From: Heterodontus francisci
Taxonomy: Eukaryota
NCBI RefSeq assembly: GCF_036365525.1
Contig: NC_090371.1
Span: 95,698,211-95,762,210, forward strand
DNA length: 64,000 bases
Direction: 5' to 3'
The notes below the pieces were generated by a model. That model was given only the letters and a program-made list of their open reading frames with translations. It did no database searches and was not told where the DNA came from. The translations under genes were made by a program, and so were the position numbers. Below are positions 1-43,225 of the stretch, piece by piece (within the stretch, counting starts at the first letter, position 1; every line of letters begins with the position of its first letter).

Positions 1-3000
1 CAGCTACTCGAAATCCGCATTTCGGATCTGGAGCGGCAGCTGGGGACACTGTGGAGCATTCGCAAGGCTGAAATCATCGTGGATAGCACGTACAGGGAGG
101 TGGTCACACCGCAGGTAAGGACTGCTCAGGCAGAAAGGGAATGGGTGACCGCCAGGCAGAGCAGAACAACTAGGCAGGTAGTGCAGGAGTCCCCGGGGTC
201 CATCTCCCTCTTCAACAGATTTTCCGCTTTGGTTACTGCTGGGGGAGATAGCTTCTCAGGGGAATGCAGCAACAGCCAAGTCTGTGGCACCACGGGTGGC
301 TTAGCTGCACAGGAGGGGAGGAAAAGGAGTGGGAGAGCTATAGTGATAGGGGGTTCTATCATAAGGGGTACAGATAGGCGTTTCTATGGCCACAAACATG
401 ACTCCAGGATGGCACGTTGCCTCCCTGGTGCTCGGGTCAAGGATGTCACGGAGCGGCTGTAGGGCATTCTGAATGGGAAGGATGAACTGTCAGAGGTCGT
501 GGTTCACATTGGTACTAACGACATAGGTAGAAAGAGGGATGAGGTCCTGCAGCAAGAATTTAGGGAGCTAGGTAGCAGATTAAAAAGCAGGACCTCAAAG
601 GTTGTAATCGCTGGATTACTTCGGGTACCATGTGTTAGTGAGTATAGGAATAGGAGGATAGCGCAGATGAATGCGTGGCTGAAGACATGGTGCAGGAGGG
701 AGGGCTTTAGTTTCCTGGAGCACTGGGTCTGTTACTGGCCAAGGTGGGACCTGTACAAGTTGGACAGGTTGCACCTCAACCAGAATGGGACCAACATCCG
801 TGCTGTTGGGGGTGGGGGGTGGTTTAAACTAACTTGGCATAGAGATGGGATACAGAGTGGAAGTACAGTAGGGGGTGATGCACAGCCAAATATAGAAGAG
901 AAACTAAGTCAGTCTGGAAGGCAGAGCAAATATAGACCTGTTAAGGCACAAGCGGATAATGCAAGGCTGGATTGCATCTATTTTAATGCAAGGAGTCTTA
1001 CTAGTAAGGCAGATGAATTGATTAACACATGGGAATATGATAATATTGCTATCACAGAGACATGGTTGAGGGAAGGACAAGACTGGTAGCTCAATATTCC
1101 AGGGTATAGAATCTTCAGGCGTAACAGTGGGAGCTGGGGGGGGGGAAAGAGCGGGAGTGTAAAAGAGGAGGGTAATAATAGGGTAATAGGGTAATAATAG
1201 TAGGGGATTTTAACTTCCCCAATATCAACTGGGATAGTCTTAGTGCAAAAGGCTTAAAAGGGGACGGAATTTTTAATGTGCGTACAGGAGAGCCTTTTGA
1301 GCCAGCATGTAGAAAGTCCAACAGGAGAAGGGGTGTTACTGAACCTAATCCTAGGGAGTGAAGCCCGACAAGTGGTATAAGTGTCAGTGAGGAAGAATTT
1401 CAGGGATAGTGACCATAACTCTAAGATTTAAGGGAGTTATGGAAAAGGACAAAGATGGACCAGAAATAAAAGGTACTGAACTGGGGTGGGGGGAGAAGGC
1501 CGACTTCAATATGATAAAACAAGATCTGGCCAAAGTGGACTGGGAGCAGCTACTTGTAGGAAAGTCTACATCAGACCAGTGGGAGTCATTCAAAAAGGAA
1601 AGAGAGAGTGTTCAGGGCCAACATGTTCCCGTAAAGGTGAAGGGTAGGACCAACAAGTCAAGGGAACCCTGGATATCAAGGGATATAGAGGATTGGATGA
1701 GGAAAGAAAAGGAGGCTTATGGCAGACACAGACCGCTGAAAACAGCGGAGGCCCTAAAGGAGTATAGAAAGTGTAGGGGGGTACTTAAAAAAAAATTAGG
1801 AGAGCAAAGAGGGGACATGAAAAAAAAAACTAGCGGGCAAGATAAAGGAAAATCCCAAGGCATTTTATAAGTATATTAAGGGCAAGAGGATAACCAAAGA
1901 AAGAGTAGGGTTCATTAGGGACCAAAGTGGCAATGTGTGTGTGGAGCCGGAGGATGTAGGTGAGGTTTTAAATGATTACTTTTCATCTGTGTTCACTATG
2001 GAGAAGGACGATGTAGGTGTAGCGATCAGGGAGGGACTGTGATATGCTTGAACAAATTAGCATCGAAAGGGAGGAAGTATAAGCGATTTTAGCAGGCGTA
2101 AAAGTGGATAAATCCTCAGGCCCAGATGAGATGTATCCCAGGCTGTTATGTGAGGCAAGAGAGGAGATAGCAGGGGCTCTGACACAAATTTTCAAATCCT
2201 CTCTGGCCACAGGAGAGGTGCCAGAGGACTGGAGGACAGCGAATGTGGTACCATTATTCAAGAAGGTAGCAGGGATAAACCAGGCAATTACAGGCCAATG
2301 GGTCTAACATCAGTGGTAGGGAAACTATTGGAAAACATCCTGAGGGACAGGATTAATGTCCACTTGGAGAGGCAGGGATTAATCAAGGATGGTCAGTATG
2401 ACTTTATCAGGGGGAAATCATGTCCAACAAACTTGATTGAATGTTTCGAGGAGGTGACTAGATGTGTAGATGTGGTAAAGCAGTTGATGTAGTCTACATG
2501 GACTTCAGTAAGGCTTTTGATAAGGTCCTGCATGAGAGATTGGTTAAGAAGGCAAGAGCCCAAGGGATCCAGGCAATTTGCAAATTGGATCGAAAATTAG
2601 CTTCGTGGCAGGAGGCAGAGGGTGATGGTCAAGGGTTGTTTTTGCGATTGGAAGCCTGTGACCAGTTGTGTACCGCAGGGATTGGTGCTGGACCCTTGCT
2701 GTTTGTACTGTACATTAATGATTTAGACGTGAATATAGGAGGTATTATCAGTAAGTTCGCAGATGACACGGAAATTGGTGGTGTTGTAAATAGTGAGGAC
2801 GAAAGCCTTAGATTACAGAACGATAGAGATGGGCTGGTAAGATAGGCACAGCAGTGGCAAATAGAATTTAATCCTGAGAAATGTGAGGTGATGCATTTTG
2901 GGAGGACTAACAAGGCAAGGGAATATACAATGGATGGTAGGACCCAAGGAAGTACAGAGGGTCAGCGGGATCTTGGTGTACTTGTCCATAGCTCAGTGAA

Positions 3001-3076
3001 GGCAGCAGCACAGGTAGATAAGGTGGTTAGGAAGGCATATGGGATACTTGCTGTTATTAGCCGAGGCATAGAATAT

Positions 3077-3274
3077 GCCAAAGACTTGCAGGTTGATAGG
3101 TTAATTGGCCATCATAAATTGCCCCTAGTATAGGTAGGTGGTAGGGAAATATATAGGGACAGGTGGGGATGTGATAGAAATACGGGATTAGTGTAGGATT
3201 AGTATAAATGGGTGGTTGATGGTCGGCACAGACCCGGTGGGCCGAAGGGCCTGTTTAAGTGCTGTATCTCTAAA
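3077..3274 (+). mobile_element. 5'-truncated V-SINE (HE1-like) inserted in CR1 ORF2
   Basis: Matches the 3' half of the SINE at 3796-4153. It interrupts the CR1 sequence gaatat|aagagcagggagg. Confidence 0.9.
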
Positions 3275-3795
3275 CATAAGAGCAGGGAGGTTATGATGGA
3301 GCTGTATAAAACGCTAGTTAGACCACAGCTGGAGTGCTGTGTACAGTTCTGTTGGCCACACTACAGGAAGGATGTGATTGCACTGGAGAGAGTGCAGAGG
3401 AGATTCACAAGGATGTTGCCTGGGCTGGAGCATTTCAGCTGTGAAGAGAGACTGAAAAGGCTAGGATTGTTTTCCTTAGAGCAGAGAAAGCTGAGGGGGG
3501 ACCTGATTGAGGTATACAAAATTATGAGGGGCATAGACAGGGTAGATAGGAAAAAACTTTTTCCCTGAACGGTGGGGTCAATAACCAGGGGCCCATAGAT
3601 TTAGAGTAAGAGGCAGTAGGTTTAGAGGGGATTTGAGGGGGAAAAAAATTCACCCAGAGGGTGGTTGGAATCTGGAACACATTGCCTGAAAGGGTGGTAG
3701 AGGTAGGAACCTTCACAACATTTCAGAAGTATTTAGATGAGCACTTGAAACGCCATAGCATACAAGACCACGGGCCAAGTGCTGGAAAATGGGAT

Positions 3796-4153
3796 TTTTT
3801 TTTTTAGATTAGAGATACAGCACTGAAACAGGCCCTTCGGCCCACCGAATCTGTGCCGAACATCAACCACCCATTTTATACTAATCCTACACTAATCCCA
3901 TATTCCCAACAAACATCCCCACCTATCCCTATATTTCCCTACCACCTACCTATACTAGTGACAATTTATAATGGCCAATTTACCTATCAACCTGAAAGTC
4001 TTTTGGCTTGTGGGAGGAAACCGGAGCACCCGGAGAAAACCCACGCAGACACAGGGAGAACTTGCAAACTCCACACAGGCAGTACCCGGAATCGAACCCG
4101 GGTCCCTGGAGCTGTGAGGCTGCGGTGCTAACCACTGCGCCACTGTGCCGCCC
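3796..4153 (-). mobile_element. Full-length tRNA-derived V-SINE (HE1-like)
   Basis: Minus strand has A box tggcgcagtgg, B box ggttcgattcc, V-domain gtgtggagtttgcaagttctccc...ccggtttcctcccaca, a CR1-like tail and an A-rich end. It is inserted in the CR1 3' end. Confidence 0.93.
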
Positions 4154-4484
4154 TGTAGAATAGATACGTGCTTGATGGCCAGCATGGATACAATGGGCCG
4201 AAAGGCCTATTTCTGTGGTGTATAACTCTATGACTCTATTTCACTGCTAGGTTTGCAATTAAGGTCCCTCTCTGACAGCAGCAAAATTGCTGAGACCCCA
4301 AATGTCTATTCAAAAGTGGTCAGAATTGCAGGAGGCTGAGTTGTATTTTTGCAAATCTTAAAGCCTAAAAGCAGTAAAGAGTACTTAAATCCTGCAAGGC
4401 TACAACAGGACTTTCTTACATGGAGTAAATGTTTTTTGGCAGTACTGAATCTGAAAGGTAGCAACAGCTTCATAGGTACAGTAC

Positions 4485-16394: not shown

Positions 16395-17399
16395 TTGTGC
16401 GACATCTTAAAGGGGACAGCTAGCGAGTGGTTTAGCAGTACCTTCACACAATTGCTGCGTGTGCATGCAGCTTAGGGGGAACATTGATCTGCATGGAGCA
16501 TCAATGAACTGCTGTCCAAATTCAGAGACAGGTTGGAAGGACAAATGAAGTCCAGAAGCTATCTGAAGGATAGAGTACTGGAGGATGCACTGATGCAAGT
16601 ATTTCCGGCGGAATGAAGATCTGGGAGGTATGCAGAATTGATTGTAGGGCAGAAAGAAAAAACATTATAGTGAAGTTGGAGCTCATCACAAGCTCCAGAG
16701 GCAGTGGAGAAAGGTACTTTAGCCAGTAGCGTGAAGTTCCAGCCAGGAATTAGACTGCAGCTGAAACTGAAATACCAGCAGAATCAGTTGGCTAATCACA
16801 GGCTCAGTGGTTAACAGCAGTGGTGGGGGAAGGGCTATAAGCTGATCAAAGTAATTTCAAAATTTAAACAACTGGGCAAATCAGAGACACAGCAGTTGAG
16901 TCTTACAGTGTAGTAGCCCAGGAATTTGGAAGCCAAATTTGAGATAAGATCCACTGTTCCCAAACATGGCCAGGGGATGGGAGTTTAAACTAGCAGTCAA
17001 CTTGCAGTTAGGGCTAAAATGTACCAACTGTTAGAGCTAGGGACAGAGGAATGGGAGAGCATGGGCTAAGGACGGCAGCAGATGTTCAAGGATAGTTAGA
17101 GGTGCACAGTGAGGAGCTCCCTCAGGAACCATCTTGGGACCTGCCCATTTCCAGCAATTTGTGTTTTTGCTTTAAAACTGCAATAATTACCCATATGGTC
17201 TCTGTGTTTTAAATGACACTGATGGCATTCTCTAAACTGCTCCAGCAATTTTCCTACTATAAACTTTAAAATGATCATGCCCCAGTGCATATCTCATGCT
17301 ATTTTTAAATAAACTGGGATTACATGCAACACTTTCCAATTCTAGGCACAGGGCCTATGGAGCTCTTCAAAGTATTAACTAGAACAGCAGCTCATTCCT

Positions 17400-40875: not shown

Positions 40876-43225
40876 AGTGCTAGTGAGTATAGAAGTAGGA
40901 AAATACACCAGATGAATGCGTGGCTGGAGAGATAGTGCAGGAGGGAGGGCTTCAGATTTCCAGGGTATTCGGACCAGTTCTGGGGAATGTAGAACCTGCA
41001 TAAGCTGGACGGTCTACACCTGAACAGGACTGGAACAAATACCCTTGCAGGAAGCTTTGCTAGTTCTGTTGGGGATAGGTTAAACTAGTTTGGCAGGGGG
41101 GGGGGGGGGGGGGGGGGGGGTGGAAACAGAGAAGCCTGAGGGGAGATCTGATTTAAATGTGCAAAATTTTGAGGGGCCTTGATAGAGTGTAGGTGAAGGG
41201 TCTATTCACCTTAGCAGAGAGGTTCATGATGAGGCAGCATAGATTTGAAGTGATTGGTAGAAAAATTAGAGGGGAGATGAGGAAAAACTTTTTCACCCAA
41301 AGGGTGGTGATGGTCTGGAACTCTCTGCCTGAAAGGCTAGTTGAGGCAGAGACCCTCAACTCATTCAACCGGAGTCTGGATATGCATCTGAAGTGCCGTA
41401 ACCTGCAGGGCTACGGACCAAATGCTGGAAGGTGGGATTAGAATAGGTGGATTGTTTCTCAGTTGGCAAACACGATGGGACAAGTGGCCACTTTCTGTGC
41501 CTTAAACTTTCTATGATTCTATGGGAACACGAAGGCAGTTTCAGATAGGTCAATTTCAAAGCAGGGAACAGGAGGAGAAAATTAGCGAGTGACTCTGAAA
41601 GATAGAAGAAGCAAAGGTGCAGCACAGGAATTGGGTAGTGTTAAAGGGTATTTATTTAAGTGCAAGGAGTATAGTAAATAAAGCCAATGAGCTGAGGGCA
41701 CAGAGACACATGGCAACACGATATCATTGCTATAAAGGAAACTTGGCTTAAAGAGGGGCAAGAATGGTAGCTCAACATCCCAGGATATAGAGTTTTCAGG
41801 TGGGATAGAGAGGGAGATAAACAAGGAGGGGGTGTAGCATTATTGGTTAAGGAGGGACGGACGATATGCTAAATGAATCATCAAATGAGGCCATATGGGT
41901 GCAGCTCAGAAATAAAGGGGCAGCCACACTACTAGGCGTGTACTATAGACACCAAATAGTGAGAGGGAGGTAGAACAACAAATATGTAGGCAGATTTGAG
42001 TGCAAAAACTATAAGACATTAATAGTTGGGGATTTCAACTACCCTAATATCAACTGGAATACAAACAGTGTGAAGGGCCCAGAGGGCACAAAATTCTTGA
42101 ACTACATTCAAGAGAACTTTTTTAGCCAGCATGTAACAAGTCCAACAAGAGGGGCGCAATTCTAGATTTAGTCTTCAGTAATGAAGTTGGGCAAGTGGAT
42201 GAACTAACAGTGGGTGACCATTTTGCAGATAGTGATCATAATAGTTAGTTTTAGCATATTCATGGAAAAAGTCAAAGATAAAACAGGAGTAAAAGTTCTA
42301 AATTGGGGGAAGGCAAATTTTACGAAACTGAGAGGTGAACTGGCAAAAGTGGACGGGATACAGCTACTTGAAGGAAAATCAGTAGCAGACCAGTGGGAGG
42401 TATTCAAAAGCAAGATGCTACAGACACAGTGTAGGCATATCCCTACAAAGATAAAGGGTGGCACTGCCAAATCTAGAGGCCCCTGGTTATCTGGATGCTT
42501 ACAGGGTAAGTTGAAGCAGAAAAAGAAAGCTCATGACGATTACAAAAATGTTAATACTTTAGAAAGTGGTCTACATGGATTTTACTAAGGTATTTGACAA
42601 AGTCCCGCATGGCAAACTGGTCAGTAAAATGAAAGCCCATGGGATACAGGGGAATGTGACAGGTTGGATCCAAAATTTGCTCAATGACAGGAAACAAAGG
42701 CCAGTAGTCGCAGATATTTTTGTGAATGGAAAACTGTTTCCAGTGGCGTTCCACAGGGCTCAGTGTTGGGTCCCTTGCTGTTTGTGGTATATATTAATGA
42801 TTTGGACTTAAATGTGAGAGGCAGGATTGGGAAATTTGCTGATGATGCATAAATTGGCTATGTAGTTGATAGTGAAGAGAATAGTGCAGACTCCAGAATG
42901 ATAATGTTTCTATGAGAACATAAGGTTACGTTTCTATGTTTCTATATCAATGGTCTGGTTGCGTGGGCGGAAAAGTGGCAAATGGAATTCAATCCAGAGA
43001 AGTGTGAGGTAACGCATTTGGGGAGGGCAAACAAAGCAAGGGAATACACAATAAATGGAAGGATACTGAGAGAGGTAGAGGAAGAGAGAAACTTTGGACA
43101 GCATGTCCACAGGTTGCTGAAAGTGGCAGGACAGGTAGATAGAGTGGTGAAGAAGGCATATGGAATGCTTTCCTTTATTGGCCAAGAAATAGATTACAAA
43201 AGCAGGGATGTAATGCTGGAGATGT
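40876..43225 (+). mobile_element. CR1 from ORF1 esterase to RT, with a ~700-bp internal deletion at ~42565 and missing 3' end
   Basis: LDGLHLNRTGTN...GDRLN* (stop 41086-41088), endonuclease motifs, and a jump tactttagaaa|gtggtctacatgg. Confidence 0.92.
41130..41522 (+). mobile_element. CR1 3' end nested at the ORF1/ORF2 junction of another CR1
   Basis: FFTQRVVMVWNSLP; tail ttctatgattctat. Confidence 0.9.

Follow-up and report, generated by a model that had tools for sequence, protein, structure and literature searches.

The window, which is the whole 64,000-nt stretch of DNA analysed here, contains two copies of a LINE with two open reading frames, one copy decayed and one 5'-truncated. Near-identical junctions in published sequence rows labelled LINE/CR1 suggest that these LINEs belong to the CR1 group. 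The features at the two loci are as follows.

1..832, + strand: decayed CR1 ORF1, which runs off the start of the window; SGNH/GDSL esterase at about 313-810; ends in ...G-L-N-stop in the phase of the family.
823..829, + strand: slippery heptamer T_TTA_AAC (X_XXY_YYZ), in the ORF1 phase in the family.
830..832, + strand: ORF1 stop directly 3' of the heptamer; TAA here, TAA or TAG depending on the subfamily.
840..850, + strand: position of the G-rich tract, eroded in copy 1; candidate 3' stimulator, which also codes for G-x-G in the -1 frame.
823..984, + strand: -1 frame linker of 54 codons, with no stop and no Met, which runs into the endonuclease.
973..3800 (end approximate), + strand: decayed CR1 ORF2, with the endonuclease from 973 and the reverse transcriptase (RT) farther 3'.
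40877..41121, + strand: second copy, 5'-truncated, of subfamily B; end of ORF1, G_TTA_AAC at 41079-41085, TAG at 41086-41088 and a long G-run to about 41121.

The first-pass annotation had proposed that a programmed -1 ribosomal frameshift joins ORF1 to ORF2 in copy 1. The sequence on which it relied, GGT TTA AAC TAA, is found at 821-832 with the heptamer at 823-829, and the frame that begins at 823 is indeed open and free of Met as far as the NARS motif of the endonuclease, whose N is at 985, the earliest stop of this frame being at 1087-1089. A profile search of the translation matches PF13472 to positions 463-810 (E 6e-12). ORF1 of this copy has an internal TAG at 460-462, and its ORF2 is disrupted by stops, deletions and an insertion near 3070-3275. 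The codon of esterase block V (763) and the heptamer (823) lie in one frame, and 67 nt separate block V from the stop, compared to 78 nt in most relatives. Copy 1 is an in-frame ORF1-ORF2 fusion through an 11-nt loss, and it can therefore not by itself fix the phase of ORF1. Moreover, TTTAAAC as such is common, with 19 matches on both strands of the window, so that the evidence rests on its constant position and phase in relatives. As a further junction within the window we considered TTTAAACTAG at 16984-16993, which was set aside since no ORF1 context could be seen around it.

Two short insertions, one in and one after ORF2 of copy 1 (about 3070-3275 and 3810-4155), resemble related repeats in opposite orientations. 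They may be SINE-type repeats. Similar sequence also interrupts three other loci of our collection (L108, L112 and L144).

Copy 2 reads AGG TTA AAC TAG at 41077-41088 and continues into a G-run, as had been described. The first G of its G_TTA_AAC is private to this copy, and 28 of its 29 closest relatives have T_TTA_AAC. At about 41098-41530 the G-tract has grown to a long run, after which come about 390 nt similar to the 3' end of a CR1; the linker and the endonuclease pick up again near 41530-41660.

For a comparison across the genome we collected 172 loci, of which 60 were found by a DNA query spanning the junction, 42 by three divergent ORF1 proteins and 70 were taken from 150 PF13472 matches (40 of these 70 were hand-picked, leaning to partial matches). 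The heptamer followed by TAA or TAG, whose conservation and phase the first-pass annotation had left to such a comparison, is exact in 141 of the 172 loci. Of the others, 24 have one mismatch, 2 have two mismatches and 5 lack a recognisable junction. In the esterase-HMM set (n = 70), in which the match ends short of the junction, the heptamer is exact in 62 loci and the heptamer plus stop in 59. Clustering assigned 162 loci to eight subfamilies (A to H) of 56, 30, 28, 20, 12, 11, 3 and 2 copies, the two smallest being thinly sampled, and left five other loci and one junction-less locus as singles. Among 12 loci that were added, seven have exact junctions, one has TTTAAAT and in four the junction was not located; one of the 12 sets the phase of subfamily E.

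T_TTA_AAC is found in phase directly before the ORF1 stop in all eight subfamilies. The distance between block V and the stop is 78 nt in 50/56 copies of subfamily C, 26/28 of B, 19/20 of D, 12/12 of F, 11/11 of G and 3/3 of H. Subfamily A has a G-run of variable length before the heptamer, and 12 of its 29 measurable copies, copy 1 included, are in-frame ORF1-ORF2 fusions by indel (79, 82 or 67 nt). Fused frames of this kind would also arise if an RNA polymerase or the RT added a G within the G-run before the heptamer, producing +1 templates that encode the fusion directly. However, only A and E have such a G-run, the other six subfamilies mostly keep the 78 nt, and nucleotide slippage gives no reason for the conservation of T_TTA_AAC. 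We consider that it has hardly any chance of being the explanation.

Read-through forms are also seen at one locus of subfamily C (L067) and in an annotated ray protein (P0026). A variant junction is seen in run X9, where four contigs at L169:2001 (loose-end consensus, agreement 0.83) have T_TTA_AAA with no stop and then the G-tract. Contigs of four runs of uncertain type, for which part of the substitutions was covered, show neither an indel nor a joint spanning the junction; they are not counted as evidence.

We then asked how the conservation of the junction compares with that of the rest of ORF1. Codon columns were framed from block V, since the G-run of A and E breaks the frame otherwise. 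The esterase regions of the eight subfamilies are 59-88% identical at the nucleotide level. TTTAAACTA is invariant in all eight, a run of 9 nt, compared to a longest run of 8 elsewhere in 501 esterase columns. Leaving M and W aside, 53 of the 154 ungapped codon columns encode one and the same residue in all subfamilies, and 8 of these 53 also keep one codon. The codon is invariant in none of the 12 invariant Leu columns and none of the 3 invariant Asn columns, whereas at the junction TTA and AAC are found in 8/8 subfamilies. The heptamer, which might have been no more conserved than Leu-Asn coding requires, is thus conserved beyond that. The codon that precedes TTA always ends in T (GGT, AGT, GCT or ACT), although the residue is G, S, A or T, and an invariant third base is found in just 4 of 54 comparably variable codon columns. 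We do not rely on the substitution rate within subfamily C (5/392 in the heptamer versus 119/2160), which is circular because the junctions had been located by their match to the heptamer.

An invariant junction could also result from protein constraint only. Leu-Asn would be needed at the C-terminus of ORF1p and F-K-L at the N-terminus of ORF2p, with ORF2 being reached by internal initiation or from a spliced RNA, and dual coding in the 10-nt overlap would fix the nucleotides. For dual coding, however, ORF2 would have to start upstream of the heptamer, where the -1 frame is interrupted at a distance of 1-5 codons in seven of the eight subfamilies, subfamily A being blurred by its G-run. Thus, dual coding cannot easily explain the invariance.

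Proteins of more distant relatives bear on the same question. The closest homologues that carry a species name come from sharks and rays, which suggests a cartilaginous fish as the host. In 158 of 214 proteins the C-terminus lies 20-42 residues past block V, and 145 of these C-termini are distinct, with 81 LN, 14 GN and 3 KN, and with GF and FF also near the end. The LN-ending ORF1s are found in sharks, rays, Xenopus, a turtle and unnamed sources, and such retention of L-N-stop from sharks to Xenopus and a turtle is in line with protein constraint. A dipeptide compatible with a slippery heptamer is present in the last residues of 109 of the 145 C-termini, compared to 6-29 of 145 at other offsets, these rows being related and not independent; 36 of the 145 have none in their last residues. 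Residues whose codons cannot end in T (K, E, Q, M and W) directly precede LN in only 1 of 81 cases, versus 99 of 486 at positions -4 to -9. Q precedes GN in 9 of 14 proteins and LN in 0 of 81. In a quick tree of 140 esterases, from which the tails were left out, GN, KN, GF, FF and LN alternate within one clade of 32 rows (SH-aLRT 95). The terminal dipeptide drifts between 24 and 39 residues past block V, yet stays beside the stop. These swaps to GN, KN, GF and FF at a shifting distance from block V count against protein constraint, which we regard as very unlikely to be the sole cause.

GN, KN, GF and FF may be translations of other slippery heptamers, in relatives that are known as proteins and, for L174 alone, as DNA. 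In L174, G_GGA_AAC is found in phase at 1287-1293, one codon before a TAG, and the contig ends 5 nt after the stop. One K-N clade (P0161, P0171, P0183, P0196, P0199, P0213, P0230 and P0231) has KN about 27 residues past block V, compatible with A_AAA_AAC; seven of its eight proteins stop about 10 codons after KN (judged by eye), as expected for a slip site in a longer overlap. Two further CR1-type ORF1 proteins, P0008 and P0059, which are filed under Pseudomonas aeruginosa and the frog parasite Protopolystoma xenopodis, are probably contaminating vertebrate DNA. In searches for DNA of the distant relatives, viral contigs gave no CR1-like locus (one unrelated pattern match), plasmids gave none, bacterial genomes gave four distant esterase matches and metagenomes one locus.

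On the ORF2 side of the junction, 113 of the 162 clustered copies have their endonuclease motif in the -1 frame relative to ORF1. The linker, 48-72 codons long, contains no stop in the -1 frame in any of the eight subfamilies and 2-8 stops in each other frame, and its amino acid identity among subfamilies is merely 6-33%. The open frame extends far in the best preserved loci. L180 has an ORF1 of 318 aa and 904 open codons in the -1 frame, and L183 has an open frame of 977 aa that takes in the RT motif and is free of Met up to position 148, beyond the endonuclease start at 53; in both, the FADD motif is within the same open frame. Moreover, PF03372 and PF14529 (endonuclease) match the -1 frame of L169, and PF13472 is also found on L061.

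ORF2 had been called AUG-less, a description that stands for six of the eight subfamilies, which have no Met before the endonuclease, and fails for D and G. In the subfamily of copy 1 none of 19 open copies has an in-frame AUG before the endonuclease. Subfamily D has Met at codon 10 in 9/13 and at codon 43 in 12/13 open copies, and subfamily G has Met at codon 17 in 9/9. The AUG in GGGGGATGGG was discarded as an ORF2 start, being in the ORF1 frame and missing in C, F and G, and an NPGP motif (2A/StopGo) before the endonuclease is found in none of the eight subfamilies.

The stop-free linker is predicted equally by termination-reinitiation, the route described for SART1 and L1 in the available parts of PMC2881922 and PMC2699510. 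According to these, the L1 process has been proposed to be AUG-independent and SART1 uses UAAUG; like the CR1 elements, SART1 and mammalian L1 have a bicistronic LINE RNA with ORF2 dependent on the translation of ORF1. Ribosomes would stop at the TAA or TAG and restart one base back at the overlapping codon, releasing a free ORF2p, and the conserved sequence would be the reinitiation signal. The in-frame AUGs near the junction in D and G would fit such a scheme. However, and unlike in SART1, no AUG overlaps the stop at the junctions in the genome (TAATG in 0/167), and it is the slippery heptamer that is conserved instead. The codon that overlaps the stop is GTC (52), ATT (49), GTT (20), AAT (13), GTG (12) or others, mostly not near-cognate, and subfamilies F, H and E lack a near-cognate codon close to the junction altogether. 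A TURBS-like UGGGA is absent at any common upstream offset. Finally, reinitiation leaves unexplained both the exchange between LN, GN, KN, GF and FF and the G_GGA_AAC of L174, which precedes its stop by one codon. We therefore judge reinitiation to be unlikely, while taking it more seriously than the two alternatives above.

The same junction is present in published CR1 consensus sequences. In the supplement of PMC13343379, of which the first 400 characters per sequence were covered, as strings and not as reading frames, TTTAAACTA occurs in 23 rows, in 17 of them at the end of ORF1 as judged by eye. Conservation in other vertebrate CR1s, which the first-pass annotation had proposed to test, is seen in rows labelled as shark, ray, chimaera, bowfin, coelacanth, frog and crocodilian (codes AllMis, CroPor, AquCat, LatCha, AmiCal, CalMil, HypSab, PriPec, ScyCan, SquAca and AldAff, with the species partly our own reading of the codes). 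A G-tract follows TTTAAACTA in most of the 17 rows. Five synonymous variants ending in TAG gave 11 matches in the covered part of the supplement, none of them in a CR1-labelled row. TAATG, the overlap of stop and AUG that reinitiation would use, is found in 3 of the 17 rows, all of them shark. Among ScyCan_CR1-1a, SquAca_CR1-17a, SquAca_CR1-6c and ScyCan_CR1-13, three join the heptamer to TAATG and one has the heptamer without an adjacent stop. The rows that combine heptamer and TAATG indicate that both routes could coexist. In the row AldAff_Crack-2, which carries a Crack label, what looks like the end of an esterase ORF1 reads Y-L-N-stop and contains the heptamer; the accessible text of PMC13343379 states that ORF1 is not reliably detected in vertebrate Crack elements.

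Frameshift sites may be accompanied by a downstream stimulator, and the first-pass annotation had suggested folding this region. Minimum free energy folding with shuffles and an enumeration of pseudoknots, the latter without shuffle control, found no hairpin or pseudoknot common to the subfamilies. Folds better than those of shuffles were obtained for A (70 nt, z -2.5) and H (z -2.9 and -2.7) alone, and the structures of the two differ. Likewise, no long-range partner of the G-tract is common to the subfamilies, the best partners in the fetched elements (19/20) being at differing offsets. What recurs is the G-rich tract itself. A run of at least 4 G, mostly starting 9-11 nt after the heptamer, is present in 143 of the 162 copies, the tract having the form G5-7, 1-2 nt, G3-4. 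By G4Hunter score the tract is among the top 0.2-8% of windows in seven of the eight subfamilies, and a quadruplex is predicted in three of eight. The tract also encodes G-x-G in the -1 frame, where GGG is used for the first Gly in 8/8 and for the second in 7/8 subfamilies. A stop that adjoins a -1 shift site may itself supply a pause. As of 2016, no natural case of a G-quadruplex that stimulates frameshifting was known, according to the available part of PMC5009743.

A heptamer in constant phase, a -1 overlap that continues into an open linker, conservation at synonymous sites and the exchange of heptamers in distant relatives are together best accounted for by -1 programmed frameshifting, which in our view most likely produces an esterase-endonuclease-RT (ORF1-ORF2) fusion in CR1 LINEs. 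The fusion that had been suggested from copy 1 is supported by the conservation beyond coding and by the lack of an AUG in the subfamily of this copy; the slip, the fusion protein and the pause we infer from these comparative data. Most ribosomes would translate ORF1 and end at the TAA or TAG. A minority would slip one base back on U_UUA_AAC, with UUA in the P site and AAC in the A site, and would go on to read ...L-N/K-L... through the 48-72-residue linker into the endonuclease and the RT. The pause could come from the adjacent stop, from the G-rich tract 9-11 nt downstream, or from both. This predicts free ORF1p in surplus and, rarely, an ORF1-ORF2 fusion of about 1,300 aa, as in gag/gag-pol. 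More tentatively, -1 frameshifting in esterase CR1s, in jawed vertebrates and distant relatives, may predate the shark-tetrapod split and have the G-rich tract as its stimulator, acting as a G-quadruplex or a protein site, with no pseudoknot; we see this extended version as possible, with the odds rather against it.

The elements resemble the canonical vertebrate CR1 with esterase ORF1 (type IVB), in which an SGNH esterase ORF1 is followed by an APE endonuclease-RT ORF2, as described in the accessible parts of PMC4120745, PMC13343379 and PMC3905857. The word 'frameshift' is absent from the main texts of these three papers as far as these were available, as well as from the visible part of the PMC13343379 supplement, and the junction signal is not described there. 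The heptamer had been described as a canonical slippery site, which agrees with its place among the most shift-prone heptamers in the covered part of PMC5009743. The same source lists the viral -1 cassettes, with U_UUA_AAC in the coronavirus IBV, G_UUA_AAC in arteriviruses and the retroviral gag-pol sites. The CR1 junction is like these in that the upstream ORF ends with an in-phase X_XXY_YYZ and the polymerase ORF lies in the -1 frame. Unlike them, its host is a non-LTR retrotransposon, and it has only a G-rich tract and no conserved 3' pseudoknot or hairpin. Among APE-type non-LTR elements, ORF2 of the Dictyostelium TRE5-A and TRE3-A is stated to need a -1 frameshift (PMC5911963, part of the text). 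These elements share with CR1 the non-LTR type and an ORF2 in the -1 frame, and differ in host and ORF1 type; the likeness is based on that statement and not on the shift site. CR1 does not appear in the covered portion of PMC5009743, which discusses HeT-A, TART and L1. The accessible portions of the literature searched outside the CR1 papers of 1997-2005, including PMC4255032, PMC11835228, PMC5633606 and PMC13405545, hold no report of frameshifting in CR1. We regard its novelty as provisional, since Haas 1997, Kajikawa 1997, Kapitonov and Jurka 2003 and Kojima 2005 may mention the overlap or a frameshift.

CR1-group elements are the dominant retrotransposons of most vertebrates, according to the accessible part of PMC13343379. 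How LINEs with two ORFs produce ORF2p is still unsettled, reinitiation being the accepted model. The junction signal of CR1, about 30 nt long, is deeply conserved, and by comparison it has the features expected of a -1 frameshift site; it belongs to one of the major LINEs of vertebrates. If it acts as such a site, the shift would link the RT covalently to the esterase ORF1p, which is membrane-associated, and fix the ratio of the two, which would bring LINE expression closer to that of gag-pol. CR1 ORF2 annotations that begin at an internal Met would, in that case, miss the N-terminus of the endonuclease.
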